Assembly (NCBI RefSeq): GCF_018977255.1
Contig: NW_024704742.1
Coordinates: 48,858,001-48,922,000 of the forward strand
Direction: 5' to 3'
Length of the DNA stretch: 64,000 bases
Source: Callorhinchus milii
Lineage: Eukaryota
This document shows, piece after piece, positions 1-57,275 of the stretch. The position numbers and the translations under genes were made by a program. Every line of letters begins with the position of its first letter. Position 1 is the stretch's first letter. The notes under the pieces were generated by a model that was not told the DNA's origin, did not search any database, and saw nothing but the letters and a program-made list of their open reading frames with translations.

Positions 1-2729
1 AAAATAAAATTATTTTGGCGATTGTTGCACCTTTATTATTATAAAACGTTCTGCCTAACAGAGTATCAGAATCATGTTTTTTTTAATTATTAAAAAAAAC
101 TCAGCCTTTCTAAGCAGGGAATAATTGGATTGCGTTCAGCTAGTATAAATTATTTCAGGAGCTGCCACATCACTGCTGGAGTAATCGGTATGACTAGCGA
201 GGACTTTAGCAAATGACTGTGGAACTGAAGACTCATTACTTGAAGTGGATGGACCAGCTGGAAATTGTGCTTTTTATTGTTTATGTATTTTTAGTTCTAA
301 AATATCATTATATGCACCGCAGACTTTTAAAATGTCACTCTCTTTGATTTGTGATTAAAGTCGCCAAAGCAATCAAACAATTATACAGTAACTAGACCGA
401 GACATACCATAATTCCTTGCTTAGCAAATAGATGGGTCTGAACCCGATACTTGGAAATGATTCTGTGGAGAACTGCGAGCACCTGATAAGCCAGCTGCAT
501 TGTATCTATCTGCCTCAGTCAGCCGCAATACAATAACACTTTGGTTCACTTAGATCCTAGACTTTAATGTGGGATAAATATTAAAAATGTGGCCCACCAA
601 AATTGAACGACAGTGTTAAAGAGCAAGCAAATAAGCAGCCCTCTCTTTTCCTTGGTTGAGCAAAAAATATTTTTTAAATATTAAAAAAGGTTGGCATTTA
701 TTTATTGAAATAGATAAAGCCACGTTTTGCATGCTAATTGAGGCCTCGAACAGAGGAATCATAAGATAACTGTTTGCTGTATTTTTTTTTATTTGTAACC
801 ATTGCCTGATCGGTTTGTTGGAATGTTATATGTTAGGTTCTTTCACATTAAAACCGTGCCTTAGAAAATGCAGGCTGTTGCACATAGACGGTCAGAAATA
901 TTGAGCATGTATGTGAATCAGACATAATTGGTGCCATGTCTGCTAAGGATGTGCTCTGGAGTGAGCTGGGTGCAAGCGGTGCTAGGAAGCAGACTGGATC
1001 CTGAGGTCCAAAGGGCTTACTGCACGTGGTCAGCCAACAGTAGACTGAAGTTTTTGACCTTTCTGCATGGTTTCAGCAATAGCTGATGTTGCTCCTGCAG
1101 AGAGAGAAACATCCGTTGTGTAAAATACAAGTTTTAGCACAAGGGATTTTTAAAGTGGACTTTTTACATTTTCTTGTACTCGCGCCCTCCTGAGAACTTA
1201 CGGATGTGGAGGAAGTCATGAACGTAAATGTAGTAGCACATTTTGTACGTGTTCCAATAGCCCCATTTACAAACCTGTTTTTTTTGTTTGTTTTAAAAAT
1301 ATATATATTTTAAATGGAGACACTTTGGACCAGAGTCACTAAGCACAAGTGGTAACATTACAAGTAACTTCCTGACCTGTATTGACTTGCAGTCAACACA
1401 GATTACTTAAATATCAATACTTAAAACTCCCACCCGACAGTACTGCAGGCTTCCCTGGAAAAGACATTGTGAAACACATTCCTGAATCGGGAATGATAGG
1501 AGCAGCACATTTGTATTTTGTGGTTGAGTGTGAATCAGAGAAAGAAATAAGGGTCTGTAGCAACGTGAATTGCAGCGTGAGTGCATGTCAAAGACAGAAC
1601 AAAACCTGAACTAGCCTTAGCACAATAACAACAACTTGCACTTAAAATAGTGGCTTTTTTATAAGGCACCACCTTGAAGCATTTTACAGAGACGGAATAG
1701 AAGTCCGGGCATGTCGGGAGAAGGGAAAGGTAGGCATGAGTCAGGTGATGGCATAGTCGATGAGAGAGAATTTGAGGTGAGTTTTGAAAGCAGAGGCAGA
1801 AGTATTTTGGGAGAGCGCAGTAATGTTATTACCCTAAGCAGAGTTGATCCCTTTCATCAACCGATAGTGTGGGCCCCCCCCCCCGATAGCATCTGAACCA
1901 AAAACATTAGGATTGCTTCAGTACAAATAAAAAATAGCCAAGGCAAAGGTATTATTTAGAGGTTACATTTTGTTTTAAAAATGTTCCACTTATAGGTTTG
2001 GTTGACTTGCACTGAATTTGGTAAGTGTAGTAAGTCCATGTTTGGCTCAAATGTCAACATTAAGCTTTGTCAAAGGCTCATGCCGTATTTGTACCAGATT
2101 GCCACCAGACTCCGAAATTCATGTTTGCATGATTGGATGCAGTATTTTAACAGCAGCATGCAGTGATTCTCTGCCACCATTGACCAACATGAATGTCTGC
2201 ATAAAGAGCTCATAACTGTACTTGGTTAACAAGGTTTGTCCAAAGCATGCTTGACCAAACATGGACTTAAGCTGGTGAATAATTGTAACTGGGGCTAGTG
2301 TTCAAACATAAATGATTGAAACTGTCTGATATATGCTACAGTTCAACTTATTATGCTGTATTTATTGTGATTTGCCTCTAGAAATAATAAAAAGTACAAT
2401 GTGTTCAAATAATGCAACAGCTTTTATAGTACATGTATGTTGTTTATAAATAAAATGTTTAAAAATTAACCTGTTGCTTAATGATTTTTGTTTTCCACTG
2501 ATTGACTTTGTGACTTTATTACACATGAATATTCTACATGAGGTGATTTTGATTGTGCTGCAAAACAGGACAAACCTCAGAAGCACATGTGAGGGCAGAG
2601 AACTCCTGGCCCTCAAAGAGCGGGTCCAGTCAAAAAGTATGTGTGGCCTGCTAGTACCTGGCAGTACTAATAAGGTACTTGAAGGCAGTAGCCTCTTTAA
2701 GAGACCTGACCTTAATGCTGTGCGGACAG

Positions 2730-3120
2730 TGTTTGTGCATACATGGTGTTTGATGTGGTGTGTGATTGGTGATGTGTGTGCATGCATGCATCTGGTATGT
2801 TTGTGCATGTGTATCTGTGTGTGATGTGCATTTGAGAGTGCATGTGACCGGTGTCTGTGTGCACATGTGGTCTGGTCTGTGTGTGTGTATCTTGTGTATG
2901 GTATTTGTATTTACCGATGTACCTCTGGTATGTGTTCTGGTGTGGTTTGTGATTGTGAGTGTGGTGTGTGTATGCGTGTGATGGTTGTATGTATGAGTTT
3001 CATGTTTGTGTTTGGTGTTTGTGTGTATGCATATGATGTTTGTGTATATAGTATGGTGTTTGTGTGTCTGTGTGTGTGTGTACGCATGTGTGTGTGTTAT
3101 GGGCATGTGTGTGTACACGA
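2730..3120. repeat. Degenerate (TG)n-rich low-complexity tract
   Basis: Directly visible; it explains the spurious Cys/Val and His/Thr ORFs. Confidence 0.9.
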
Positions 3121-3999
3121 TGGGCTGAGGACTGCTGTTTTCATTTGGTGATGTTTATTTTGATCTATCAGTGAACAAAAGGCTTATTTTAGTTCCAAAA
3201 GCGACTTTGCTGTTTTGCTTGCAGGCTCCAGCACCACAATCTCTCACAGGGCATCTCCACCTACACCAGTGAGACATTTTTCAGCTCACACAAGAACCAG
3301 CCCAAGACTGCTGAGATATGACTTAGACCATGATTCTAACACCATGAATAATAGTGTAAACTATAAAATTATAATAATACGATAAAAATGTCAAAAGTCA
3401 TGGAAATCATAGTAAAAATTATGGAACTCAGAAAATTTTAACAGGAGCGTCATTACTAATTGGAAACTACTGTTATTTTGTTGGTGGTCTTTTTGCATTA
3501 AAATATCACAAAGATTCTATGCATGCACAAGATAAGAATCAGGAAACCTTTTTTTAATTAAAGATTTTGGCTGCAATATGACCATTTTCAATATTAATTT
3601 GTAAAACAGATTATTGTACTTCCTAAAAAGAACTAACTTACAAATTAAGACTAAGTTTAAGAATTTTATGCAATTCTGTGGGACTTTTAAATCAAAATTG
3701 TCTTTCATGCTAAGATAAGGTAGAATTTGGGGACTTATAGTACACAGAACAAGCAGGGAATTGAATTAGTATACTGTATATAGATCCACTTGATGAGCTA
3801 GCAACATTATAGGCTTGATATGCAAGAGTGGCTAGAGTTTCTCTGATTGCCTGAGAGAAAAATACTCTTCACCTTCTGATTGCATAAAGTGTCATTTTTC
3901 CAAAAAGCAAGATTTCTTTTTCAAAAAATGATTCACATAATAGATTTCAATCATGATCTTTCACTGAAATTTTGACTGTAACATGACATTAAATTTCGG

Positions 4000-4366
4000 T
4001 GTCCCATAGTTCAGTGGTTAGAACACTTGCCTCGTAAGCGAGAGACCTGGGTTTGATTCCCGGCAGGGCAAAATTTGGGGCAAGTTTCCTTACTCCACGT
4101 GCCTCCGTTTACCTAGCAGTAAGTAGGAACCCAGTTGTTAATCAATTGTCGGATCACTTTTCCAGGAGTAATCATTCTTTCAAAACAAATAATAATTGTT
4201 GACTTCAATCTACCGCTGTTTGTGGGACACCGTTGAGCACAATTGGCTGCCTCATTTTGCCCGCAAAATATAGAGTCAATTCACTTTACAGTATATTCTG
4301 TAAAGCACTTTGAGACGTCTCAAAGGCGTGATAAGGTGCTATATCAAATGGAAGGATTATTATATT
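4000..4366 (+). mobile_element. tRNA-derived SINE, near full length
   Basis: tRNA-like head with A/B boxes (TAGTTCAGTGGTTAGA ... GGTTTGATTCC), shared body, L2-like tail ending in ATT repeats. Confidence 0.9.
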
Positions 4367-4944
4367 AAGCACAGTCTTCTCTTACTTTGTATAGAGTCTA
4401 ACTGGTCAAAGAGGAAACTATGGTATTCTACATCTAAAAGTGAGTTAGTTATCTTCATCAGTAACTGTATATCACTTTCCAGTCAGCGCTCCCTTTGAAA
4501 ATACAAACAATTTGATCTCAATGTCTTTCTTTGAAGCCGTATGTCAAATACTGCCTAATGAACTTGACCAGATTACCACAATTGTTGCAGTGACATTCAT
4601 TTGACTGGTTATTTATTCACAAAACCCATTGTGCTTGCTGTTTTCCCTGGTTCAGTTGCAGTTATTTAGATTCCAAGGATCAGCAAAAAAAAGCTAATTA
4701 AAAAATTACTGTGGCTTAGCGATCAGCTCTTTGGAAAGGCAGCTGAAAGGGTTCAGCTGAGGGCACCTCAAAGTAAACTGCTACTCTTTCATCGCAGGTG
4801 ACCTATGACAGCAGGAGTGTCATTGAAGCTACTCGTATTTTGTTTGGTAATCATTCTAGATTAAAAAAATTCACAAAAGTTCTGTGCGCAATTGGCTGCC
4901 GCGTTTTGCACACCAAATATACAGTCAATTCACTTTACATATAT

Positions 4945-5520
4945 AAACAAAATGCAAAATACTGCAGATGCTGGAACTCTGAAACAAGTCGCTGGGAACA
5001 CTCAGCAGGTCAGGCAGCATCTATGAAGAAAGGAAAGTGAGTAACGTTTCAGGTCCATGACCATTCGTCAGAACTGGGGCATGTTGGGAGGGAGAGGCTT
5101 TTACGTGAGGGGGGAGGCAGGACAAGGAAGACAAAGGAGAAAATGGGGTAGAGGATCGGGGATGATGGGTTAAAGAAATGTTAATAATGCAAAACAAAGA
5201 GGCGGCGGGGGAGGGGGGGAATTGCAACAAAATAGGCAGACCAGAGAGAGAAAAGGTGTGTCAGGGACCCAGTTGATGTGGTAATGGTTACAGAAGAGGG
5301 GGAGGGGGAAGGTGAGGTGTTATGGTCTGAAATTATTGAAATCAATATTGAGGCCAGAGGGCTGTAAGGTCCCTTGCAGATAGATGAGGTGCTGTTCCTC
5401 GAGCTTGCGCTGTGGCTCATTGGAACAACGAAGGAGATCATGGATGGAGAGGTCAGAGTCTGAGTGGAAGGGAGAGTTGAAGTGGCAAGAAACTGGAAGT
5501 TCAGGGTTGTGCTTGAGGGC
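4945..5520 (-). mobile_element. Penelope-like element 3' fragment (C-terminus of the GIY-YIG endonuclease plus terminal repeat with a hammerhead-ribozyme core)
   Basis: PVSCHFNSPFHSDSDL...RKLEEQHLIYLQGTLQPSGLNIDFNNFR is typical of the end of a PLE endonuclease. Downstream is CTGACGA...GAAACGTT, then AGATGCTGCCTGACCTGCTGAGT. Confidence 0.85.
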
Positions 5521-7399
5521 ACAAATCGGTTTCAAGCAAATGCAATATCCAGTTACTTAAAAGTGATCATTCCTTTGAATGTTCATATGCAAAGAACTGT
5601 AAAAGGCATGAAAGCAGGCCTTTGTACAGGCAACACAGAATTGGTTTGCAAATGCTTACTTGGAGTAAACAACGTTAAACATACAAGTGTAACAGTCTGA
5701 CCTCGTCAAATGAGAAGAAACGACAGTACATTTAGAAAATGCTAATCCAAATCATAGCGCTTTAAGACATAGCGCTCAGCGACATGATAAGGTGCTATAT
5801 CAAATGAAAGAATTATTATAGACAGAGACTTGACTCACAGAATACACATGTTATATGTATGCTGTATAGGTCAGACCGAGAGAGTGCAGCCAAAAGACAA
5901 TTTATTTTCTGTGAGCTGGCAGGCTCCAACCATGAATTTAGAAACCTATGAGTCAATCACCACTATCAGAGTACTAGGGATCAAGAAATGGCATGATGAA
6001 TAACTGAGGTTACGACAAAAATAATTCACAGGAGATTCTGGGATTATTTTTTAATCAAGTGTTTTACCTTATTGAAATTTGGGAGTAAAATTATAATTTA
6101 TTTCCATTTCCACTTTACCACCTTGTATGAAAGTTCCAACATATTCTTCTCCTCCTTGTGCTGCTTGTTCTAACCAGAGCTTTAAGTGGTATCAGTTTCC
6201 TCCTTATCGCGTGTAATGTATTTTTTATTCAATTATGGGCCAAGCACAATGGAGCAGGACCTATTCCTTCTGACATTGTGCTGAGTGCATGTAAAATGCC
6301 AGGATGAAGACAAACCTAATAACACACATTATACAAGGAAATGCTGAGGCCGTATCATTCTCCTGCAAAAATAATTTACGAATGCTAATTATGCTTTCCC
6401 GACATAATAAGGCAACATTTTCAACTAACAGACACAATTATGAATCATTTGCAAGGCATTTTAATGTAAAGTTTCCCTTGTTATAGCACCTGGTGCTACA
6501 TTATTCTATGTTAGTCTGCAATGCCTTAGCCAATTTATTGTTTAATAAAAGGTTTGTTTGCTGCAGACAATGAGGTTCAAAATGTGACATTCGCAAGTTG
6601 GTGTTACTGTATGTTATAAATAAATACTTGAATACCCACCCTACCATCTTCCCATTACAATATCAAGCTATTTCTCAAACAAATCCAGTGTCCTAATCTC
6701 AACCACCCTTCTTCAAACCCAATTGCAGCTTTTAATATACATGCATGTTAGTGTATTTTGAGCTTGTAGACAGAATGCACTTGTAGCTATATATCTGTAT
6801 ATGATGCTAAAATCAATTTATAGGTTAATAGAAATGACCAATCTGTGATTTTTTTGTTTCCAGAAAAACAATCAACAAAACAATATTCCAAACTTAAACC
6901 AGCAAAGTGCATCTCAGTGTATGAGAATGCCTGTAGGAATGAGGCGGAGGTACATTGCAAATGAACAACTATTATTAACACATATCTAGAAAATGTGCCA
7001 TATTAAGGTCCTGAATTTTATGTGCAACCTTAATTGTCCAGTTTTTTATGAGCTAATATGTAACACCTAACCGTCTCAATATTTAAAACTCATTAAGCAG
7101 GAAACATTCTATGTCATGAAAATTTGAATATCTAAATTTCTCATTCTGAAACTGCCACGAAAAGTAATTTATTGATAAAATAATGTTGCCAATGGCAGAT
7201 CACCCTGCAATAGGGAGAGGAGGTACGATTGAAAGGAACATTCTGTGTCTTTAACATCGACGTTGTCCACAAACACTAGAGGGCGACAAACACTGGAGTT
7301 AGAGAGTTGGGCTAATTTGAGGGTTGACATCCAGTCTGTTTGATAGAAATCTATTCGGACATGAGGAATTGTCACGATTTGTTTGATGAGAATCCATTC

Positions 7400-8140
7400 A
7401 GACATCATAAATTAGCTCCTAGGCAGTTTGATAGGAATCAATGGTGGGATCAGAGTCGGGCAATGTCTGATAGCGATCAATGGGAGGGTTCAGAGACTGA
7501 TATCCCCCTGGGGTGGGTTGGGGGAGGTAAGTGGGGTCTCCTTGGAGCTGAACTGGCTCCAAGGTGACATGCCTGGCAACGGAGTGTCGGAATCGAGCCA
7601 ACCCTCTGTCCTGGTGTCGGTAGTCCAGCTCCTGAGCCAGGTGGATCCGTAGTATTCCAGGGCAAGGCTGATGGCAGCACAGCCGGCCTGGCTCATTGGC
7701 CAGACCTGGAAGGGCAGACCAGTCACTGAGGGAATCATCCTGCTCATCTCCTGTTAACCCTACAAATCAAAGGCTTAATGGGTTGGATGGTCCTAGCTGA
7801 ACAAACCGTGGGAAAGCTTGACAGACAGCAATATCGATGGCAAGCTATGGGGTTTTGCTGGTTAGACAACTGTAATTTTGTTGTTGTTGTAGACTCCAGC
7901 AGTTACCCTAACGTACACTCTGGGGTTCCCAAGCCTTGGCTCTTGCCAACCTGCACTAATACTTTCCAGAATAAGTAGGATGTGTCCCTCCAGGGAGAGA
8001 GTGCACATTCCATTCCAACCATCTATCTCTGGGATTTCCATGTGTAGTTGGGATGCATGGAAATCTTGGCTTGGCCTGGATACCCTTAAACATGGTAATG
8101 GGTTTCCTCATGTGTCAGACACCCGGCTAACCCCAAAAAA
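7400..8140 (+). repeat. Unclassified interspersed repeat, copy 1
   Basis: Segmental similarity by eye to 42890-43200 (inverted) and 60780-61370 (direct). Boundaries approximate. Confidence 0.7.
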
Positions 8141-10489
8141 GATATTCTCTGATTGGAATCCATGTGGGGGTCAGAGACTGGCACTGTCTGTCTGGTGGGA
8201 ATCTGTTGAGGCATCAGAGATTGGCATCTACACTCTGTTGGTGAATGTTGTTGTTGGAACATCATGAAATGGGCAGCATTTTTTTTCAGTGGAGTTCTCT
8301 ATTTGCACTTGCATAGAGAATTGGACTTGATTATTTGGACCTGCAGAGTTATGGATAATTTTACTTCACTGCCTCCAAAGGATATTGGGACAAAAAGCCT
8401 ATTTCACATACCGATAGTGGGGGGGAAAAAAATCGCAAAATCATTGTATGAGGAATGGTACCTTTCCGAAGATGACAATTTGTTTGTATTTGTCACTGAC
8501 ATAAAGGGATTGTTTATGTTGGTGCCTTTCATATTGTGGTACTCATAGGTCGGTGTTATTTTATGGATTAACTGCTTATTGCATCAGGCTGGTCACTGGC
8601 CACTGAATGTGGGAGATTTCCCATCGGATTTCAAATGGAGGAGCACAATTCGTTTTAAGGTGTGACAAATATTTCTTTCTTTTTTAAAAAAAAATGAAGA
8701 GGAGGATCTCAAGACAGGTGCAAAAAGGCAGCAATAATTTCGAGCAAAGGTATTGTGGTTTGCGTTTGTTTGATCTGCAGCAGCCAGAGTGGTTACAGCC
8801 AGAATCCGAGATCAGGCGCTACATGCAATTCATTTTCTTTCGAATAAGAGGAATGTCAATAAGAATTTATGCAGCAGAAATTCGTCATTTGGATAAGTAA
8901 CCACGGGTCGGAGAGTCAATGAAGTCCGGATCATGTTGGAGCTATTTCTTGCCAGAATGCCGGGTTCAATCTGTTTCTCGGGAGCCCCTGAATGAAATGC
9001 ACATCTCTCCAGGACGGTTTCACCTCCTCCTGGTGCACAGACACTGGGGAAAGAAGTCGCTCTTAAATGCAGGTTGCGAATTCCACAATTCCCAGTCTTG
9101 CAAGTGCAGTGACTGCAAAGGTGACTTGCACGCTGTGCGCCTGTGACCCCAAGTTTCTTCTTTTATTCTGTTGCCCCCCTGAAGCACGTATTCCCCCCAC
9201 CCACCCCTTCCCCACACTCCGGTTTTCCTCCCAGGATTCTGGAAATAAAGCCTTGCCTCCCTGCCATTTATTGCGAGAATCTGCACCGGTTGTAACTTGA
9301 TTAAATGCAAACTGTTGAAGTATAAATTGACGCACCGCATTCTGACTGGCAGTGCGGTGCCGGTGCCTGTTGCCTGCTGCCTGCTGCCTGCTGAAGGCTT
9401 CTGGCATCCGACCACACTCTGTCAAACCACCTGTTCAGGCGCTGCTAACATTGCACACGGACCAAATGTAGTTGAGACATGGGCCAGGGAGCCCCATATT
9501 GCTGCATAACCACCTCCAGCAGCTCAGCCTGAATTATAAACCATCTCCCCCTTTTATTGTGTTGTTTCTGAGCAATGTACCCAACCGGCGCAGCAGAAGA
9601 TGTTGCACTGTGCATTGATCAAATGTTTGACAAAGGAAATCTGCTGTGTCTTCCCGAGACTTGTCCTTGAAAAGATTCAACTGATAAACCACCCAAACCT
9701 GTTGCAATTATGCGCTGAGGGTTAATTGGCAAATGGACATTCAATTTACACCCATGTAAATGGCACTAAATGGAAAGCTTATTATTTGTGGAATGTGAAA
9801 TGATTAGATGACAGAGGCATTCTGGAAAATATTCATTGTGGAGTTTTGTTTTGCAGCATAAATAAGTACAGATAAGACCCGAAAAATCCCGAGAAACCAA
9901 CGATTACGGTTCTCGGTGCACTTGCTGATCGCTCTACTTCCAAAGTCCTAACATGAGTAAATTGTGGCGAGTGTTTCTGCTACTTACCCGTCTGTACTAC
10001 TAGTCCAGGAAGAGTCTCAGATTAGTCGTAATGGTGTGGAAGAAAATAATAATCTTTGCATTTGATAGAGCGCCTTATCGCGTCTTTTGGACGTTTTAAA
10101 GCACTTCGCAGAATATGCTGTATTGCGATTTGACTGTATATTCGTGCACATTGCCAAAAAAAGGGGGTAAAATCTCAGTCGTTTAAAATTATTCGTTAAA
10201 TGTTAAAGGAATTGTGTGTGTAAAAAAAACATATTGGCTGTAAGATCTGATTGCGAGATCCCATCCCATCAAAAATCCACTGTGGAAACGTTATTGTGGA
10301 ACTGGAAACGAGAATAAAAGTACTCTGAGGTAATGCTATCCAGAGATGTTGGCACTTGATAGAAAGGTAAGTCACAAGGCTGGTGTGGATACCGTACTGA
10401 GACGCATTCACATTGGATGAAGTCTATTTTATTACAGTGGCTTTGGTGCCTAAATTTCAAACACGCAGACAAGACAACGGGAAAGTGTA

Positions 10490-12660
10490 ACATTAATGAC
10501 CAGATCTGTTTTGCCCCTTTTTTTTATTTCACAGTTTTTCTTTCGTCGTCTCTCATATTTTCCATCAAACATGACTTTTTTTTTAAAAAAAGAGAGAAAT
10601 CTAGTACAATCACAATATGTTTATAAATACTATATTTCCGACGATTCATTTAAAAATGTGTTTCGGCCTGTGCACACAACGGCGAAACAGCTATTAACGT
10701 ATTATTATTATTATAATAATATTTACTGTCAGTGGCAAAACAATAAGCTTTTAAATAAAAAATCACATCGACGTTCTCCAATAGTCTACCCTGTGGAATT
10801 AGCATCACTTGCCTTTTGCTAAAACTCAGAGATATAACTATCACAACATTAATTTTATTCAACAAAAAGGAAACAAAATAAAAGCAGAAACCATCTTCCA
10901 ACCTTTGCTTCGCATTTTATTATCAACAATCAAGTTAATGGTACACTTTTGGAAAACTATATGCACATGTAGAAATATTTTTGCCTTATTTAAATATAAG
11001 CATCCATTATACCACATATAAATAATTTCTGAACTCCTGAACATAAACGTATGGAGATTATGCTCACAATAATTTCCAACGGGACAGGAAAAAAAAAATC
11101 AGACAACATGCATTTAACAAAAATATATACCGTTATATATGAACCAGTTTTACCTAAACAAAAAAAAACTGAACTTGGTAATGATCTGTTGTGTGTGTTT
11201 CTTTCTCACTCTCTCTCTCCATAAAGACACGCCATATCGACTACAAGGGGACAGGTAAGGGGACGTTTTAAGGGTCAACTATAGAGGACAAATTTATACT
11301 CAGAATAACACTTTACATTTTAAGCACAGAACACGGTTGTAGAAAGACACACTAAAAGTTTTTTTTTGTTTGCTTTTTTGTAATGTTTTTGGATTTTTTT
11401 AAATTATACGTTTGCAACCATTTTTAGGGAGGGGTGGGTGTGGGTGAGGGTAAGGGCTGTGTGGGTGAGGGCTGTGGGTCTGAGGGTATGGGTGAGGGTG
11501 CGGGATGTGTGGGTGTGGGCTGTGTGGGTGAGGGCAATGAGTGTGTGGCTTAGGGTGTGGGTGAGGGCTGTGAGGGTGAGGGCTATGAGAGTTTGGGTGT
11601 GGGTGAGGGCTGTGAGGGTGTGGGTTGTGGTGTGGGTATGCGCCGTGAGGGTGTGGGTGTGGGCCGTGAGGGTGTGGGTGTGGGCCGTGAGGGTGTGGGT
11701 GTGGGCTATGAGGGTGTGGGCTGTGAGGGTGTGGGCTGTGAGGGTGTGGGTGTGGGCTGTGTGGGTGAGGGCTGTGTGGGTGAGGGCTGTGAGGGTGTGG
11801 GTGTGGGCTGTGAGGGTGTGGGTGTGGGCTATGAGGGTGTGGGCTGTGAGGGTGTGGGCTGTGAGGGTGTGGATGAGGGCTGTGAGGGTGTGGGTGTGGG
11901 CTGTGTGGGTGAGGGCTGTGTGGGTGAGGGCTGTGAGGGTGAGGGCTGTGTGGGTGAGGGCTGTGAGGGCTGTGAGGGTGAGGGCTGTGTGGGTGAGGGC
12001 TGTGTGGGTGAGGGCTGTGAGGGTGAGGGCTGTGAGGGTGAGGGCTGTGTGGGTGAGGGCTGTGAGGGCTGTGAGGGGTGTGAGGGCTGTGAGGGTATGG
12101 GTTAGGGTGAGGGCTGTGAGGGTGAGGGCTGTGAGGGTGAGGGCTGTGTGGGTGAGGGCTGTGAGGGTGAGGGTTGTATGGGTGGGGCTGTGTGGGTGCG
12201 GTGTGTGCGGGTGGGTGTGCGGGGGTGTGTGCGGGGGGGCTGAGGCTTTCCCCGGTGTGGGCGGTGTGGGTGGTGGTTGGGTGGGGGCGTTGTGGGGTCG
12301 GTGTGGGTGGGGGTCGGTGTGGGGGGGTGTGGGGTGGGGGTCGGTGTGGGTGTGGGGTGGGGGTGTGGTGGGGGTCGGTGTGGGTGTGGGGGGGGGGGTG
12401 TGGTGGGTGGGTGTGGGGGTGTGGTGGGGGTCGGTGTGGGTGTGGGGTGGGGGTGGTGGGGTCGGTGTGGGGGTCGGTGTGGGGGGGGGGTGTGGTCGGT
12501 GGGTGGGTGGGGTCGGTGTGGGGGGATGGTGGGGGTGTGGTGGGTGTGTGTGGGGGTCGGTGTGGGTGTCGGTGTGGGGGTGGGGGTCGGTGTGGGGGTC
12601 GGTGTGGGTGTGGGTGTGGGTGTGGGTGTGGGGTGGGGGGTGGTGGGGGGGACACACAGA
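10490..12660 (-). other. Probable PHOX2B 3' UTR; best polyadenylation signal AATAAA at 10523-10528
   Basis: The repeat block after the stop is followed by AU-rich unique sequence. AATAAA at 10523-10528 (minus) is followed by a GU-rich element (GTTGTCTTGTCTGCGTGTTTG). Other AATAAA copies lie at 10854-10859, 10916-10921 and 10428-10433. Confidence 0.55.
11430..12655. repeat. G-rich compound minisatellite (GGCTGTGAGGGTGAG / GGTGTG units, then GGGGTCGGTGTG-type units)
   Basis: Directly visible tandem array starting a few nt after the PHOX2B stop codon. Confidence 0.95.
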
Positions 12661-13098
12661 TCAGAACATGGTGCTTTTTACTAAAGTGGCTTTGGTGGCT
12701 CCGGGTCTCTGGAGGGAGGACAGGACACTGGCGAAGGGACCGCCTAACGAGTCGGGCACCGCGCTCACGCCGCCCGGGGCGGTCGCCCAGCCGGTGCTCG
12801 CCGCTCCCGCCGCCGCAGCCGCCGCCGCCGCCGCCGCAGCCGCCGCCGCCGCCGCCGCGGCCGCTTTGCCGGACTCCCCCACCGGCCCCCCGCCCGGCAC
12901 CCCCAGCAGGTTGCCCTGGGAGGACAGGCAGCCGCCGGGGCCCGTGCTGTCGGGGTCGGCCGGTTTGGCGTCTTTGCCCTCGTCCTCGGTCCGCGAGTCG
13001 GATTTCTTGGACGAGCCGCTGTTCTTGGCCGCCGCCGCAGCCGCCGCCGCCGCCCGCTCCTGTTTGCGGAACTTGGCGCGGCGGTTCTGGAACCAAAC
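12661..13098 (-). CDS. PHOX2B: PHOX2B coding exon 3 (438 nt including TGA): homeodomain helix 3, 9-Ala and 19-Ala tracts, C-terminus
   Basis: Acceptor cccgcag|[22 protein letters not shown]9-KN...GESGK-A19-...[31 protein letters not shown]. Total CDS is 867 nt = 288 aa. Confidence 0.97.
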
Positions 13099-13101
13099 CT
13101 G

Positions 13102-13470
13102 CGGGCGGGGGGGGGGTGAGGGGGTGAGGTGAGGGTGAGGGGGTGACGGTGAGGGGGTGGGTGGGGGTGAGGGGGGGTGAGGGGGTGAGGTGAGGGTGAG
13201 GGGGTGACGGGGGTGGGGGGTGGGGGTGAGTGGGTGGGTGGGGGTGAGGGGGTGGGGGTGAGGGGGAGGGGGTGAGGGTGAGGGGGTGAGGGGGTGGTTG
13301 GGGGTGAGGGGGTGGGTGAGGGTGAGGTGGTGGGTGGGGGTGAGGGGGTGGGTGAGGGTGAGGGGGTGGTGGGTGGGGGGTGAGGGGGTGAGGGTGAGGG
13401 GGTGGGGTGAGGGGGTGGTGGGTGGGGGTGAGGGGGTGGGTGGGGTGAGGGGGTGGGGGTGAGGGGGTGA
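13102..13470. repeat. G-rich (GGGGTGAG)-like array at the 3' end of PHOX2B intron 2
   Basis: Directly visible; abuts the exon 3 acceptor. Confidence 0.95.
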
Positions 13471-13739
13471 GACAGGCACAACATCACTGCCGCTGCCGTT
13501 GTTTCTGGTCGTCGTCCCGTTGCTATTTATTTGTTTATGCATTATTCTTCTTCTTATTCTTATTATGATTTATTGTTATTGTTATTGTTTAGTTATTGCG
13601 GGTTCGCGGTCCCCCGCGTCTCGCGGATGCGGTGCGCGGAGAGTTTAAGTGCATTGGGGGCGGACAGTGGGTTTTTCCGTCGGGGGGGGGAAAAAAAGGC
13701 CAGACGGGAAAGGGTTAAAGCGGTAAGACGAGGGGAAGG

Positions 13740-13845
13740 AAAGGAGAGAGGGAGAGAGGGAGAGGGGGAGAGGGGGAGAGAGGGAGAGGGGGAGAGAGGG
13801 AGAGAGGGAGAGGGGGAGAGAGGGAGAGAGGGAGAGGGGGGATTG
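13740..13845. repeat. GA-rich purine repeat (intron 2)
   Basis: GAGAGGGAGAGG-type tandem units. Confidence 0.9.
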
Positions 13846-14124
13846 GGGTGGGGGGGGGGTGCACCGCTGTGCGTGTGTTGGTGGATCAGGTTTGTTAGTA
13901 ATCATAATATATAAAAATCTTTGCATTTGATAGAGCGCCTTATCGCGTCGTCGGGACGTCTCAGAGCGCTTCACGGAATATGCTGCGGGGGGGGGGGGGT
14001 GGTGGCTGACTTCGGGCGAAGCAGAACAAGATCAGAAAGGGTTAAGGAGGCAGGAAAAGGGGAGAGAGAGGGGCTGAGCTGCCCGGGAATCACAGCCCTG
14101 GCTCTCAAACTGACCCGCCCGCTC

Positions 14125-14530
14125 ACAGCACAGCACAGCACAGGACAGGACAGCACAGGACAGGACAGGACAACACAGGACAGCACAACACAGGACAGGA
14201 CAGGACAACACAGGACAGGACAACACAGGACAGCACAACACAGGACAGGTCAACACAGGACAGGTCAACACAGGACAGCACAGCACAGGACAGCACAGCA
14301 CAGGACAGGACAGCACAACACAGGACAACACAACACAGGACAACACAACACAGGACAACACAACACAGGACAACACAACACAGGACAGGTCAACACAGGA
14401 CAGGTCAACACAGGACAGGTCAACACAGCACAGGACAGGACAACACAGCACAGGACAACACAGCACAAGGACAGGAAAACACAGGACAACACAGCACAGT
14501 ACAACACAACACAGCACAACACAGGACACA
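14125..14530. repeat. Compound pentamer microsatellite (ACAGG/ACAGC/ACAAC)n (intron 2)
   Basis: Directly visible. Confidence 0.95.
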
Positions 14531-14677
14531 CGTCTGAGAAGTTGGAAGATATGAAAAAAAAGGGGAAAATAAAATACGTGGCTTTTGCAGCGTAAATGTT
14601 GCTTTTGTTCACATGTCTTTCTTCCTGAACCATTTACAGCTGCGGAACCTGTACTCCGCGCTATGTCTGCTGTGCGG

Positions 14678-14770
14678 GGAGAGAGAGAGAGAGAGAGGGA
14701 GAGAGAGAGAGAGGGAGAGAGAGAGAGGGAGAGAGAGGGAGAGGGAGAGAGAGGGAGGGAGAGGGAGGGG
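14678..14770. repeat. (GA)n/GGGA repeat (intron 2)
   Basis: Directly visible. Confidence 0.9.
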
Positions 14771-15264
14771 GAGCTGCTGGTGTAAATAACCCAAGCGCTG
14801 TATGTGCTGTCAGAAAATGTTGGCCTCAATGGATCTTTGTCTTCATCGATTTTTATAGCAATAACGATTTTTGTACGTGGACGTATATTTCTGTCCATTT
14901 GTATATCACGACATATGTGTGTGTTGTTTTTTTTTAAAAAGAAAATTTGCATCAATATTGTGCGGCTGTGTAATATGTAGATGTTGCTTTCAATCTCAAA
15001 ATCAATCTCAAAATTTTGCCACAACGAGATTGGGTCTGTGTTGCGCTTCCTCCTCTGTACAGCGCTACAGGAGTGTATATAAAGGGAGAGAAGACTATTA
15101 AATGTAAATGCAGATGCCAGAATAGAGATAGATAGACATACAAGATGTTCCGATTGCAACAAGGCCTATATCTCGAGTCAGTGGCTGTGTGTGAAAAAAA
15201 TCTAAAGCGCCTTATTGACTGTGCAGTAGTTGGTGTGATGTACCTGCACTCCTGGTCCCACCTA

Positions 15265-15591
<327 letters not shown>

Positions 15592-16415
15592 TTAAACTTA
15601 AAAAAAAAATAACAAAACGCATTTTACAACGCTGATGCAGAGCAACGAGAAGACACCTGCGTGTGGAAAGGAAATCGAGAAATGTACTTTTTAAAACAGG
15701 TGCTCACAAAGCAATACCCCACCGCAGTGCTTAACGTTGTTGAATTCACATCAGCTACAGAGAAAACATTTGCAGTAAGATTGCACACCTTGCAGTGAGA
15801 TTAATTCGCTTTATAATTAGGATAATGAATAAATTAAGAATAAATGATTAAAAAGTTATCAACCTGTTAAAAAGCAATATCAAATATTAGCATCATATTC
15901 TTATCTAGAAATGCTTACCCCCAAAATGCAGGAAAATGCGTAGCACGAGATAAATAAAATTAGTTGCATTTGAATCGATTGATGCATTTTATTTTTATAT
16001 TTACTAAAAGGCAATGTATTTTTGTGCCAAATTGTTCCTAAATTGGCTTTCAAACTTTGGAGTCCTTCTAAAAGTTCATAGAAAGCTTTAAAATGATCAC
16101 AGCATTAAGTCCAAGACACTGTGTTTTAAAGACACTCTGGTAATGAGCTTTAGTCTTTGGTTATTTAATTACACCAGGACAGATTTTCTAAGCTTTACGT
16201 ATCATCGCAAAGTAAATAAATTATGCCTATCATTTTGGCAGCTTAAGATAATTTTGTTGGCGGTTCGGGTGTGACTAGTATAGTGTAACCCTATAACTGA
16301 ATTACCCATTGCCTGCAATCGCTTCTAACGTGATAAATTCTTTCATTTGTGTAAGCAAATTTCGTTTGGTAAATACTAAACACATTTCAATTTTCAAATG
16401 CAATCAACCTTCCTA

Positions 16416-17150
<735 letters not shown>

Positions 17151-17447
17151 TAAATAATGAAAGTTGGGTGACGATTTTCCCTGATCCAATTTCTCTGCGC
17201 TTTTAAAGCTTTTTTAAGCGATCAGAGCCCAGGCACAAATTGAGATATTTGGTGTTTTGGGGAAGGAAGCCCTCGGTGTCACGGTCCGCCTATTTTTTTT
17301 AAATAATGTTACACGCTCAATTTCACAACAAGTCTCCCCCCCGCTGTGCGTGAAATGTTATCGCGGGTGGACATTCGCTGGACGCGGGCTCTCGATGCAA
17401 AATAGAGAGCGTGAGTTAGTATAGAAAGAAAAACAAGGATTTTTTTT

Positions 17448-17478
<31 letters not shown>

Positions 17479-20400
17479 CCCCTGAACACACACCTGTCTG
17501 AGAATTGCGCAGGAAAGCCATTGCACGCGTTTTGCAATCGTGAGGATTGCACATTGTCGGATAAAAAGATTTCACTTCGGAACCGTAATGATTTTTTTTT
17601 ATCCCCCCACCCCCCCACCCCCCCAAAAAAAGATGTTGCGATCTCGTAAATAATACATGCAAAACAGTGATGCCCTATTTATGTTGCTCACTGTGAGGCT
17701 TTGCGGGATCCCGAAGGGGATGTTGTTTGCGGAAATATTTTCACTTCAATAAACACGACCGACACAAATAACGACTGGGTTGAAATAATGCATTTCACAA
17801 ATACTCGGATCCCGTCTATTTTGGACGAAAGCTTATTATTAACTATTGTGAATGTCATTTTTTAGAAAAAAACACACAATCACAATACAAAATGAGAGAA
17901 ACATGTTTTATTTTTGAAATGACGGGCAATCAGTGAACAGGAACACCAGCGAATTAAAACAGCGGCGATTCCCCTGGAAAGCGCACTTTTTTAAAAAAAA
18001 TTACGAAATTCAGTTTTACTTTATTTAACCCTATTTGTGCTTCCAGACTTGCGCGTCTCAGCTCTCACCTCTCCTCTGCAGTGTGCGTCTCTTGTGGTTT
18101 TTTTTGGGGGGTGGGGGGTGGGAAATGCGCTAATGCGAGGCAACAGTTGATGCGATTTTAAATCATTATAAAATTAGTGTAATTGCATCCACAAAAGCCT
18201 TCCCCGCGTTAAATACCAAGCGAAATGGAACCGTGTTATTCTCAATGCGGAGCGGAATATAAACTCGGCCTCGTTTGATATCTGCGATGCATCGCTTCTC
18301 AGTCGGTCTTTAAACGTGATAATCAGCTGCAAAACAAACTAACATTTGGTGCGAATAAACCATCGCCACAGATGGACTGACAACAAACGCTATGATTGTA
18401 AGATGCAGCGCCTAACCCTAAGATGGTTCGCCTTAATCAACAGAAGACTACAAAAAAAAAGAAGCAGGATTCAAGCGAAAAAAAATAACAAGCCAACGGT
18501 TTTACAATCCGTTTATTAATATCGTTTGCACAACAAGCAAACAAACATACAACGAATAACGCCCGAGCAGCTTCCGATCTGATTTATGATGTTGCGCCTC
18601 ATTTTCGAACAGTTTAACAGCAAGACTAGGAATCGTGAAAGAGAGAGGTTGTCGAGGGCTGTAGTTTTATTGATGATGGGCGATGTAATCTGTGTTGAGT
18701 TGTGGGTTTGATAAAGAAGGACTTTCTTTTGTGCTTTGTACACATTGTGTTTTTTTTGTTTACTGGGGAAATGAAAACAAAGTTACAGTGACGCTGGGAA
18801 ACAAATTGCACATTGCACTAAATTGCTTTCTCATCATCCGTCTCCAGCCAGACTACAGAGGCGAGGGGGGCATCAGTCTTCCATCTCTGTTCAGTCTCCA
18901 ACTTAAAGAGCTGCAGAGACGAATGTGAATCCGAGCATTATTGCAAGAATTTATCTTTATTTATTTGCGCTCTCATGAATATGAATGCAGTTCTCTCCCC
19001 CCCCCCCCACCCCACCACCACCCCACCTTTTCGACAGAGCAATAATAAACATCTACAACAAATGTGGAAACGATTTTGTTCAAGAAGACAAATCCCTTTA
19101 CTCCAGCTCTTCTTCAGTCGCTGCAATCTTAATGTCATAAACCGATCACACAATCAGCTTTTACTTTTCTCCCTTTTTTTCTCGCTCGCTGTTCGCTGTA
19201 ATTTAAACATTTAGGCAAAGAAGCTGACAGCGATACTGCCACAAACAGCAATATTTCACTCAGCCTTACGAAATGTTACTCAGCACTGGATGCTCGCGGA
19301 TTTATTAAAGGAGCCTCTGGCAATCGTGGGCGCGCGTGTTGAATGGACTGGTCCGGTACAGTTAGGTCCTGGTCAGTTTGGGCTTTCGTTCTCGTTTGAG
19401 AAACAAAAGATAGTGATTATTTGACGCTTGTCATCTCTCCCGTGCAACACCTCTGCATTGGTGTCTGTCCCCGGTTCAAAGTTAAAAGGTAAAACCGTTA
19501 TCAGCCTTCAGCCAGGCAATGGGAAACCAGAGGGCGATTTGGCTTTGCTTTATCACACACTGTGTGTTCAACACCGTTTCTGCACAGCCACCTGCACCTC
19601 TGGGCGCTCTCCTCTCACTCAGATCTACCAGTAGCATCAATTCGGTCGCTTCCGAATTGCACGGTTCCTGACTGCAAAATAACCAACACCAAACAACAAC
19701 AACAAAAAAACAACAACATGATTTATTTGATAAAAGCAAAGTTGAACAACTGCTAATTCTGAGCCGCGATCATCGACTTTAATTGGTGCGTAACGGCTCA
19801 GCACACGAAGTCGATGAGACAAGGAACATCCTATCGTGCGGCTGTACATTTGATCCGTCGAGAAGTCCACATCCTTCCCTCCCTCCCTCCCTCCCTCCCT
19901 CCCTCCCTCTCTCCCTCCCTCCCCGTTTCAGAACCTGACACACATCAGACAACAGGCAGAGAGAGAGAGAGAGAGAGATAGATAGAGAGATAGAGAGAGA
20001 GAGAGAGCAGAAAAGCAAACGCTATCTGGAATCGCTCTGTTGCGCAATCGGAGGCGTTGTCGCTTTCTTGCATTCGTGAGTTGGTTTTTGCAGCAAAGGG
20101 AGAAAAGAGAGAGAGAGAAAAAATCTTTTGTGGCGGCGTTTTATTGGGTTGTGAGATAAATGAGTGCGGCTGACAATCAGCGGCCGCTGGTGTTTTGTTC
20201 AGCTTGAGCTCCCCACGCGAGCTTCTGGCGACCCTACTCCGGCTGGAAAGTTGTACCAAATGGCTAATTCAATTACTGCAACTATAGACCAACTGCTCCA
20301 GCAGCCATCCACCACGCGTCTGGGGAGGAGAGGGGAAGACCGACCCCCCCCACCCACCCACCCATCCGATATAATCTAATAGAGAGCTGCAGACGGGAGC

Positions 20401-38734: not shown

Positions 38735-38889
38735 CTGTGGTAGTGAGATGAGTAGATGATAGTAATGGAAGAACAATCACATTCTGTACTAGAAAAGGCA
38801 ATATTGATTGGTTTGTAGGCAATATATTTACTTTTATCCCACTGAAACCATTAAGATTTATTTACTGCATCCATAGACCTTCTGCATCC

Positions 38890-39300
38890 ACTGTCTCGTG
38901 CAGTGTTCCTCAGGGCTCTGTCCTTGGTCCCCTCCTCTTCAACCTCTACAGGCTCCCCCTTGATGACATCATCCGCAGACATGGGGTAAATTTCCACATG
39001 TATGTGGATGACACCCAACTCCATCTCTCTGCTTCCATCCTGAACTCCAGGATTACTGGCGTCCTGGCCGACTGCCTGTCCGACATCAAGTCCTGGACGA
39101 GGGCCAACTTTCTCCAACTCAATGTCAGTAAGACTGAGGCCCTCCCGATTGGCTCGTGCCAGCGCCTCCGCACCTCAGGCGCTGGCAGCATCAACCTCCA
39201 CGGCTGCACACTCAACCTCACTAAGCCAGTCAGGAACCTGGGTGTCTTGTTTGACCCTGAACTGTCCTTTCTCCCCCACATCCGCGATATGACCGGCATT
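38890..39300 (+). mobile_element. L2 LINE RT fragment
   Basis: [12 protein letters not shown]...[10 protein letters not shown]...[22 protein letters not shown]...[14 protein letters not shown]. Confidence 0.9.
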
Positions 39301-40222
39301 ATATTACCAACATACATTACTTCCGACTATACACATGCACAGTACAGCAGGAAGTGATGTCAGCAGCAAATTTTACCCAGTTCAGCTTCCCACATCAAAA
39401 GAAAAAATGGCCAGCCTGCAGGTCAGCAAACAGGAAGTGTTGCTGGCATTGATCTGATGACCTGGAAGCTATCAATTTTTAGCGCGGGAACACGGGACCA
39501 CAGCTGACTACGCAGAGGTGCAGCAAGGTTTGAACTAGAAAGTTCAGTTTTAAGGGAATCTGTACAGTGTCTGGTCAAAAGCATTGACTGGACACCAAAC
39601 ATCCGACATTGCAATTTTCAATCTTCTATAGAGTGTCCCATGGTTTGAATAGTTCTGGTGAGGCTGGAGCATGCACACGCTGCCCAACTACTTCCTGCTC
39701 TCACATGCAAGGTTTTTTTAATATTGCGTCCCACTTTAGCCAGCTCATGGTGCAGGGTGGATGGGCGGCGGATGGGTTCTGAAATAATATATTTTTTTCA
39801 TTTGGAATGTCTTTCTAGCAATCAACCACAAGCAGTGAAGCAATAGGTTGGTGGTACTGTTTTTCTAGGCAGGCCAGCGACAGTCTGTGAATTGACCCCG
39901 AGAGCCAGTTTTGAGAAACTGGAAAGTTGGTAAACTTAATGTGCAGTGAAGCAAGGTGTCGCACCTCGCTATAATGTGTGTTGGAATTTTATGAATCTCA
40001 AACCTCACATTATAACAAAATCCCACTGTATTTGCCTGTGAGTCGAACCCAGGTCTTCTCACCTGCTCGGTGAGTGCTCCAACCACTAAGCTACAGGACT
40101 CCACAATACTTTGGATGTGACCTGATCAAAACTAATTAGCAGATTCGAGCACAACTTCTTGGCTACCCCTCTTGTATCCAACCCCCAGCTTGGGTACAAA
40201 CTTTCACTTGTCAGGCACCTTT

Positions 40223-46754: not shown

Positions 46755-48085
46755 AAGAAAGTCTAGTTAGTCTAACATCAGTGATAGGAAAAATTTTAGA
46801 ATCATTGATGAAGGATGTGGTAGTGCGGTATTTAGAGGAGCACAATATAATTAGGCCAAGTTAACATGGCTTTACAAAAGGGAAGTGAAATTGGGGGGAG
46901 CATATTAACGTGGATTGGGGAATGGTTAACGGGTAAGAAACAAAGCGTAGGGATAAACGGGTCCTTTTCAGATTGGCGGAATGTGAGTAGTGGAGTGCCA
47001 CAAGGATCAGTTCTTGGGCCTCAGCTATTTACCATCTATATCAACGATCTAGATGAGGACATCGAAGTTAATATATCTAAATTCGCAGATGACACAAAAC
47101 TAGGAGGAAGTGTCAACACAGAGGATGACATTAAAAAAATGCAGCGCGACATAGATAGGTTACGTGATTGGGCAGGTAGGTGGCAGATGAAGTATAATGT
47201 AGGGAAGTGCGAAGTCATCCACCTCGGTAGCAAAAACAGTAGAGCGGGTTATTTTTTAGAAGGGGAGAGACTGGAATGTGTTGGCGTCCAGAGGGACTTG
47301 GGTGTCCTTGTACACCAATCACAGAAAGTTAGTCTGCAGGTGCAGCAGCAATTAGGAAGGCGAACGGTATGTTAGCATTCAGTATGAAAGGATTAGAGTA
47401 TAAGAGTAGGGAAGTCTTGCTGCAACTGTATAGGGCCCTGGTGAGACCACACCTGGAATACTGTGTGCAGTTTTGGTCTCCTTATTTAAGGAAGGATGTA
47501 CTTGCCTTGGAGGGGATGCAGCGTAGATTTACTAGGTTAGTGCCAGGGATGAAGGGGATGAGTTACGAGGATAGGCAACCAATTTGGGCCTATATTCTCT
47601 GGAATATAGAAGAATCAGAGGGGATCTTATAGAAACCTATAAGATCATCAAAGGGCATGATAGAGTAGATAGTGGGAGGTTGTTTCCTCTGGTTGGAGAA
47701 ACTAAAACCAGGGCTCACAACCTTAAAATCAGAGGCCAGCCCTTTCGCACTGAGTTGAGGAAGAACTTCTTCACTAAAAGAGTGGTGAATGTATGGCACT
47801 CGCTACCCCAAAGGGTTGTTGACGCTCAGTCCTTGAACATATTCAAGACTGAGATAGATAGATTTCTTATTGCAAAAGGGATTAAGGGATATGGGGATAA
47901 GGCAGGGTTAGGTTATTAGCTGGAGTTAGATTAGAAGATCAGCCATGATTGAATGGCGGGGCAGGCTCGAAGGGCCGAGTGGCCTACTCCTGCTCCTACA
48001 TGTTATGTTATGTTATGTTATGTTATGTTATGTTATGTTATGTTATGTTATGTTATGTTATGTTATGTTATGTTATGTTATGTTA
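46755..48085 (+). mobile_element. CR1 LINE, 5'-truncated and internally deleted, ending in (TGTTA)17
   Basis: SLTSVIGKILES...[26 protein letters not shown]...KFADDTKL; LYRALVRPHLEYCVQFWSP; RGDLIETYKI; 3' UTR gaatggcggggcaggctcgaagggccgagtggcctactcctgctcc; microsatellite at 48001-48085. Confidence 0.95.
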
Positions 48086-56446: not shown

Positions 56447-57275
56447 AACAACAACAACAGCAACGTGGATTTATATAGTGCCCTCCATGCCGGACGGCAT
56501 CTCAGAGCTCTTCACAGTAACGGATCCTGGGGCCAAGCCAGGGGGAGGGGGAGGAAGGTGACCAAAGGCACGGTCGAAAAGAAAGGTCTTCAACTGAGAT
56601 CTGAAAATAGGAAGAGAGGGGGCGAGGCGAAGGGAGTGAGGAAAGGAGTTCCAGAGCCTCAGGGAGTAATGGCTGAAGGCACGGCCGCCGATGGTGGAGC
56701 GGAGGATTCGGGGGACAAGGAGGATGCCTGACCCGGTGGAGCAAAGGCAACGGGCACTATTGTGAGGAGAGAGGAGGTCAGAGAGGTAGGGTGATGCAGA
56801 GGAGTGGAGGGATTTGAAGACAAGGGTGAAGTTGATCCTCTCTGGGAAAGGCAGCCGGTGCAGTCTGGCAAGGACTGGGGTAATCGGGGAGCGGAGTTTG
56901 GTGCAGGTAAGAATGCGGGCGGCAGAGTTTTGGATGACCTGGATTTTATGGATAGTAGTGGAGGGGAGACCGGTGAGGAGGTCATTTGAATAGTCCAGTC
57001 GAGAGGTGACAAAGGTATGGACCAGGGTTTCAGAGGCTTTTGGAGTGAGGTATTGGCAGAGATGGGCGATGCGTCGGAGGTGGAAGAAAGCGGTGCTGAT
57101 GAGGGACCAGATGTGGGAGAGGAAGGATAATTGGGGGTCGAACCTGAGGCCTAGGTTGTCTAGGCGCCTAGGAGAGTTTAAGGAGTAGGTCGGGTAGGTG
57201 GAGGAGGTGAGAACCATGTGATTTTAGACGTTGACGAGAGCCAAAGAGTATGGCTTCCATCCTGTCAACATCCAG
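56447..57275 (-). mobile_element. L2 LINE, 5'-truncated, with 3' tail
   Basis: 248-aa ORF NLGLRFDPQLSF...AFFHLRRI...TLVHTFVTSRLDYSN...IQNSAARILT...GGRAFS...LWNSFP; (TTG)n tail. Confidence 0.93.

Follow-up and report, generated by a model that had tools for sequence, protein, structure and literature searches.

The window, as the whole stretch of 64 kb of DNA analysed here is called, contains on its minus strand a complete coding sequence for PHOX2B (Table 1). When the three exons (241 + 188 + 438 nt) are spliced, they encode a protein of 288 amino acids in an intact frame with a single terminal stop codon. By eye, the translation of exon 1 is identical to that of PHOX2B from the reedfish (record P0002), and the same was found for exon 2, for which AG and GT splice sites are present. 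Exon 3 codes for the end of the homeodomain, two alanine tracts and the conserved C-terminus. The protein has the features of a PHOX2B orthologue, namely the N-terminal domain, the paired-like homeodomain, the 9-Ala tract which follows it and the C-terminal motif. Among the matches listed for exon 3, all those carrying a gene name are PHOX2B, bar one mislabelled turtle record. The identification of the gene in a preliminary description of this DNA was borne out by the three-exon frame, the agreement of exons 1 and 2 with reedfish PHOX2B and the motifs of exon 3. The turtle PHOX2B record (P0043) carries the source name of a CKLF-like MARVEL protein, an evident mislabel.

No other host gene was recognised among the open reading frames of at least 120 aa at positions 1-9000, at least 70 aa at positions 9000-20000 and at least 150 aa at positions 20000-64000. 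The complete protein of the window was absent from the results of three protein searches, and it may lack database annotation.

For the placement of the host, a tree was calculated from 31 exon-3 fragments, which were chosen from 262 sequences and from which long Ala and Gly runs had been removed. In this unrooted tree with long end branches, the window protein forms a group with PHOX2B from Narcine and a partial sequence from Chiloscyllium at 100/99, and lies outside the pair of Narcine and Chiloscyllium (ray and shark), which is itself grouped at 99/80. A placement together with two mammals was rejected (p-AU 0.0087). The closest match of exon 3 among the best 120 of 303 matches was PHOX2B of the electric ray Narcine, with 71% identity. 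The grouping with ray and shark and the rejection of the mammals agree with the cartilaginous-fish host suspected at the outset, and, as judged from the sequence, this fish is probably a chimaera.

Exon 3 is enclosed by G-rich repeats (Table 1). In the repeat behind the stop codon, 34 G-quadruplex-like motifs were counted with a simple pattern; unique sequence is found again near position 11425, and the repeat would lie in the PHOX2B 3' UTR if transcribed. On the sense strand, the polypyrimidine tract of the exon 3 acceptor consists almost entirely of C. The LINE-type fragments of the window are presumably L2-like and CR1-like.

Table 1. Features of the PHOX2B locus and repeats in the window.
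Feature	Position	Strand	Remarks
PHOX2B exon 1, coding part	16478..16718	-	ATG at 16718; 241 nt; GC3 0.45
PHOX2B exon 2	15367..15554	-	188 nt; most of homeodomain; GC3 0.66
PHOX2B exon 3, coding part	12661..13098	-	438 nt including stop; GC3 0.86
First polyalanine tract, 9 Ala	13027..13053	-	7 GCG, 1 GCT, 1 GCC
Lys anchoring the second tract	12865..12867	-	aligns with K of EQVK / EPGK (bony vertebrates)
Second polyalanine tract, 19 Ala	12808..12864	-	16 GCG, 2 GCT, 1 GCC; tandem 7-codon unit
Short spacer, second tract to conserved G-W	12787..12807	-	without the GGLAAAG block of human
Conserved C-terminal segment (ending LVKS.MF) and stop codon	12661..12786	-	
G-rich degenerate repeat, intron 2, up to exon 3 acceptor	13108..13475	.	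74% G on plus strand
G-rich degenerate repeat (1.2 kb) directly behind stop codon	11430..12655	.	62% G on plus strand
Satellite in intron 2	14124-14528		5-mer-based, period 15, 26 copies
Perfect 5-mer array	48000-48085		17 copies
LINE-type reverse-transcriptase fragment	38752-39357		
LINE-type reverse-transcriptase fragment	46851-47375		
LINE-type reverse-transcriptase fragment	56471-57223		

Sequence and length of the alanine tracts

Read on the minus strand from 12864 to 12808, the codons of the second tract have the order GCG, GCC, (GCG)6, GCT, (GCG)6, GCT, (GCG)3, with G-E-S-G-K before and G-A-A-S-T-G-W after the run. The order and flanks of these 19 consecutive in-frame codons are exactly as first described, and the 9-Ala tract was likewise found in frame in exon 3. 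The two tracts are the only minus-strand runs of at least six GCN triplets in the 64 kb window, and two matches on the plus strand are the same tracts seen on the opposite strand. At the Ala frequency of 0.097 outside the tracts, the probability of a run of 19 Ala is p ~7e-18, and a chance origin is excluded.

The near-pure GCG usage and the duplicated unit of the tract had been taken as signs of recent slippage. However, the ancient 9-Ala tract is equally rich in GCG (7/9, compared with 16/19 in the 19-Ala tract; Fisher p = 1.0), so that GCG purity was rejected as a clock. Both tracts together contain more GCG (23/28) than the other Ala codons of exon 3 (4/10; p = 0.019). This enrichment in both tracts is the pattern which slippage would give, and it points to a continuing turnover and not to a recent origin. 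As evidence, the duplicated 7-codon unit proved borderline, since the codons of the tract, put into 2907 different orders, yield such a duplication in 162 (p = 0.056). Should this be a genuine duplication, the tract before it would have had a length of about 12 Ala, near the 10 Ala of Narcine. For the human tract, a gain of 7 Ala is among the known expansions and a loss of 7 among the known contractions (PMC4268904).

The exon exists in read-derived contigs, because four sequencing runs of one study hold 0.98, 0.88, 0.86 and 0.74 of 42 sampled exon words, shares which cannot resolve the tract length, since one unit fewer costs about 2 of the 42 words and one more costs none; 16 runs with small shares and 4 with zero share were left out. 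The length of 19 might be an assembly error, for example the gain or loss of one 21-nt unit amid the G-rich repeats. The exact tandem 7-codon unit and the low-complexity flanks of 1.2 kb and 0.37 kb would favour such an error, other assemblies break at this site (Chiloscyllium P0122 and damaged mammalian records), and three of the four exon-bearing runs are without 12-26% of the sampled words. We nevertheless give this explanation little credit, as the reading frame stays open up to the conserved C-terminus and, as a weaker point, one run holds 0.98 of the 42 words, although this run may be the source of the assembly. Moreover, an allele of 12 Ala would still be a tract, like the one of Narcine.

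Occurrence of the second tract among vertebrates

For each of 262 sequences, which are records and not species, the second tract was scored as the longest stretch of consecutive Ala from the DPDS motif to the conserved Trp. Clades were assigned by source names, with the teleosts as the named remainder. The exon 3 search, for which the best 120 of 303 matches were listed, under-returned tract-bearing proteins.

Among the sequences retrieved, a run of at least six Ala was present in 0 of 210 scorable named records from non-mammalian bony vertebrates (211 in total), and the longest linker run in these records was five Ala, in a skink. The fishes are represented by bichirs (2), sturgeons and paddlefish (8), gar and bowfin (2), teleosts (111), coelacanth (1) and lungfish (1), the amphibians by records from frogs (25), caecilians (3) and newt (2), and the sauropsids by records from turtles (10), alligator (1), birds (24) and lepidosaurs (20). 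For the unnamed records listed, the corresponding number was 0 of 32, with a longest run of at most three Ala in all 32. The statement that the long tract is absent or short in zebrafish was confirmed by the zebrafish record (P0067), which has no tract, and a tract common to all jawed vertebrates, which had been named as a possible refutation of the first interpretation, is contradicted by the 210 bony-vertebrate records. The other 183 of the 303 matches could include fishes, amphibians or reptiles that do bear a tract. The first tract has 9 Ala in 241 of 257 records, comprising nearly all jawed vertebrates retrieved.

In mammals, the tract is described as conserved, with a range of 16-21 Ala (PMC10908835), which includes the 19 Ala found behind the Lys anchor in the window. 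An intact long tract is missing from all 14 mammalian records retrieved; seven of them are unscorable, and the others have at most 8 Ala. At this site, the gene models of PHOX2B in public databases are frequently broken or collapsed, the one of Chiloscyllium being truncated and those of several mammals having deletions (P0122, P0004, P0137, P0140, P0168, P0169). Where databases show a short tract in a mammal, an assembly error may be the cause. From tetrapod sequences only, the Ala-rich region has been traced to an ancestral amniote, after the split from the amphibians (PMC4540963). In the 55 sauropsid records examined among the matches listed, no pure Ala run was identified, and these records narrow the published amniote origin to the mammals as far as the pure run is concerned.

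For the cartilaginous fishes, second tracts of 19 Ala in the window and 10 Ala in Narcine (three isoform records) were obtained. Chiloscyllium (P0122) could not be scored, as its gene model ends before the tract site. The presence of the tract across chondrichthyans is documented by two species, that of the window and Narcine, the latter being the sole other complete exon 3 found. A ray-specific exon 3 query of proteins of 181-578 aa returned Narcine itself alone (1 of 5 candidates); fragments of 71-228 aa gave 27 matches among 319 candidates, none of them chondrichthyan-like by its linker; and the 10 matches among the 50%-identity representatives included no new sequence from a chondrichthyan or a jawless fish. 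When the clusters of 25 proteins were consulted, the only addition was a truncated shark model, and a search of the ESM Atlas gave no usable match. Judging by the tract of Narcine, the run itself seems to be old in cartilaginous fishes, and it may be only the increase in length that is specific to a lineage.

Position of the tract and its history

By alignment, the chondrichthyan and human tracts are located behind the same Lys and ahead of the same Trp, and the anchor Lys of the window (12865..12867) aligns with the K of the GK-GG which precedes the human tract. The distance from this Lys to the Trp is 14-16 residues in bichir, sturgeon, gar, coelacanth, lungfish, turtle and alligator, and it is longer in amphibians; 17 residues were counted for Narcine, 25 for the window and 34 for human (from PDB chain 8PTL). 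In those fishes and reptiles, 57-80% of the stretch between Lys and Trp is Ala and Gly, and 2-3 Ala frequently lie close to the Lys. Directly behind the Lys, the bichirs have three Ala and a mormyrid has four. A GGLAAAG block after the tract is present in human, and the block is also found in turtles, crocodilians and birds. It is absent in the window and in Narcine, where the run is followed by six residues up to the Trp.

The whole linker comprises 52 residues in the window, compared with 50-53 in basal bony fishes. The total is kept near 52 because the upstream part of the window linker is 9 residues shorter than in bony fishes. Human PHOX2B has 314 amino acids (PMC11168103), compared with 288 for the window protein. 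Given a window linker of 52 versus 50-53 residues while the human protein is longer, the chondrichthyan tract looks at least partly like a replacement of linker sequence, and the mammalian tract looks like an insertion. In the window, the linker at 12868-12945 is without the PNPNP..CGGPSP block of bony vertebrates, including its Ser-Pro site; in Narcine, a poly-Gly stretch is found in the place of this block.

The human second tract (20 Ala, residues 241-260; PDB 8PTL/8PUI), the site of the expansions in the human breathing disorder CCHS, is nearly equal in length to the one of the window. Human PHOX2B, which we take to be entry Q99453, has in common with the window the gene, the exon, the upstream Lys anchor, the downstream G-W and the C-terminal motif. 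In human, the 20 Ala follow GK-GG, precede GGLAAAGGPGQGW and are interrupted by 7 GCA codons, whereas in the window the 19 Ala directly follow the K, six residues lead to the W, and GCA does not occur. PHOX2B of Narcine bancroftii (XP_069778911.1, P0121) resembles the window protein in having its Ala run at the same site and a 6-residue spacer to the W; it differs in the length of 10 Ala and in a long poly-Gly before the run, which is missing in the window. Decoded from public frameshift products, the human tract consists of 11 GCG, 7 GCA, 1 GCC and 1 GCT codons. The difference in codon make-up from the window tract (0 GCA) was rejected as a proof of separate origin, since p = 0.08 is not decisive.

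On the accepted species tree, parsimony requires five losses for continuous inheritance of the tract versus two steps, while two gains and one loss plus one regain take two steps each (at equal costs and with no jawless-fish outgroup). Under either two-step history the mammalian tract is, as far as these sequences tell, not continuous with the chondrichthyan one. If chimaeras and mammals had both received the tract without interruption from the first jawed vertebrate, its near-identical position and length would be explained. However, five independent losses are needed, the downstream flanks differ (GGLAAAG in amniotes, absent in the window), and the codon make-up differs as well, although synonymous sites say little over such a time. 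With five losses versus two steps, and with 0 of 210 intervening records carrying the run in what is a biased sample, common descent with the mammalian tract was not found, and we regard unbroken inheritance as highly improbable.

The preliminary description had left the choice between an ancestral tract and a convergent one with a tolerated length of about 20. Here, convergence prevailed over continuous inheritance, given the 0 of 210 records with a run of at least six Ala, while the length of about 20 as a target was not supported, since the only other complete chondrichthyan sequence, that of Narcine, has 10 Ala. The run might also go back to the jawed-vertebrate ancestor; the cartilaginous fishes would have kept it, the bony vertebrates would have lost it once, in their stem, and the mammals would have regained it from a seed. 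This history is equally parsimonious with two steps, the Ala left behind the Lys (three in bichirs, four in a mormyrid) could be its residue, and the run is found in both chondrichthyan lineages sampled. However, the paralogue PHOX2A is without the Ala repeat (PMC4540963), because of which the evidence leans towards ancestral absence, and the window linker, with its long branch and without the PNPNP..C block, is not obviously ancestral. A loss followed by a regain is considered improbable, and separate origins of the tract in the cartilaginous fishes and the mammals are the most likely history.

Similar tracts are known for HOXA13, HOXA11, HOXD13 and LHX2, which are likewise GC-rich, grown by slippage from short Ala seeds and located in disordered regions (PMC5831813, PMC4540963). 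Those tracts are described as features of tetrapods, amniotes or mammals and as absent in HoxA11/A13 of catshark and horn shark (PMC5831813); the window differs in presenting a parallel case in cartilaginous fishes, at the site of the human disease tract. A full-text literature search, with most subscription journals outside its scope, gave no report of a chondrichthyan PHOX2B Ala tract in the text it could reach. In its accessible part, PMC6839033 makes no mention of PHOX2B, and the supplement of PMC9620824, to the extent accessible, lists tetrapod species codes only. For cartilaginous fishes, the parallel run of alanines at the site affected in CCHS is real, exact and apparently unreported. 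The convergent evolution of polyalanine domains is reportedly the subject of Lavoie et al. 2003. As one more instance of the known phenomenon of convergent homorepeat growth, the tract is a comparative observation and not a new type of system.

A possible route to tract growth

A parallel expansion of one Ala/Gly-rich linker, in which growth was driven by mutation under a ceiling and the run has a modest tuning role, is the explanation that we hold to be probable, and it is favoured over selection for a length of about 20. The starting point would have been the Gly/Ala-rich stretch which, in all jawed vertebrates retrieved, lies between Lys and Trp and which often opens with 2-3 Ala next to the Lys. 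In cartilaginous fishes, it would have turned into a run of Ala, with 10 residues in the ray and 19 in the window, and in mammals 20 Ala (human) would have been gained ahead of an intact GGLAAAG block. In an exon which is CpG-island-like and rich in GC3, GCG codons could survive and slip, by which the run would grow; a low germ-line methylation would presumably let GCG runs persist and slip. The 7-codon duplication may then have lengthened the run from about 12 to 19 Ala.

Exon 3 is a GC island in a window with a GC content of 41%. Codons 1-117 of exon 3 without the tracts have a GC3 of 0.92, compared with 0.45 in exon 1, and the CpG o/e of exon 3 without the tracts is 0.89, compared with 0.41 for the region of 20-64 kb; elsewhere, the median over 109 tiles is 0.38, with 6 tiles reaching 0.8. 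Slippage of GC-rich triplets has been named as one cause of Ala and Gly repeats (PMC4540963).

The human tract was shown by NMR to be a rigid helix in a disordered tail (PMC10908835). By analogy, the chondrichthyan run would be an isolated alpha-helix in a disordered tail. In an AlphaFold model of low confidence (mean pLDDT 51), a helix is predicted at residues 64-79 of the exon-3 fragment, over the second tract. The run may act as a spacer or as a modest tuner of transcriptional activation; the molecular function of the human tract is described as largely unknown (PMC4933246). The length could drift freely as long as it stays under the ceiling that self-association imposes (24-25 Ala in humans), and a length near 20 would therefore be reached without selection for 20.

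For the human tract, contractions of 5, 7 and 13 Ala have been found in controls (PMC4268904), the Ala-deleted protein dimerises and localises normally (PMC4933246), and the Ala-less protein keeps its stability and DNA binding (PMC11168103). Expansions of at least 4-5 Ala cause disease (PMC4268904, PMC5846889). The contractions in controls and the normal dimerisation and localisation fit a ceiling more than an optimum. On the other side, contractions lower RET transcription (cited in PMC5846889), and deletion of a human low-complexity region strongly lowers activation (PMC4540963), where the region deleted was defined by SEG and is not the Ala run alone. The range of 16-21 Ala, the loss of activation and the lower RET transcription argue for more than neutral drift in mammals.

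It is conceivable that an activating helix was selected in both groups and held at about 20 Ala, between a loss of activity below and aggregation above this length. The same Lys anchor in cartilaginous fishes and mammals, the position of 19 within the mammalian range (PMC10908835), the impaired activation after deletion in human (PMC4540963) and a total linker kept at about 52 residues while its composition shifts to Ala would all be in accordance with such an adaptive convergence. However, Narcine has 10 Ala, none of the 210 scorable records of bony fishes, amphibians, reptiles and birds among the matches listed has a tract, human contractions occur in controls (PMC4268904), and the deletion that impairs activation extends to the SEG-defined region (PMC4540963). 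In addition, one value falling into a 6-wide range out of a plausible 10-24 would be unremarkable. Adaptive convergence is thus rated as unlikely, with more weight than any other alternative to mutation-driven growth under a ceiling. If it were true, the CCHS-prone tract would be a repeatable adaptive solution and not a mammalian accident, both tracts would sit just under the same aggregation ceiling, and the chondrichthyan alleles of 10-19 Ala, with their different flank, would provide a natural series for tract function and for the pathogenic threshold.

A second, separate origin at the same site would mean that the PHOX2B linker is predisposed to grow an Ala run. The natural variants with 10 and 19 Ala, both without GGLAAAG, could separate the effects of length from those of the flanks on activation and aggregation.
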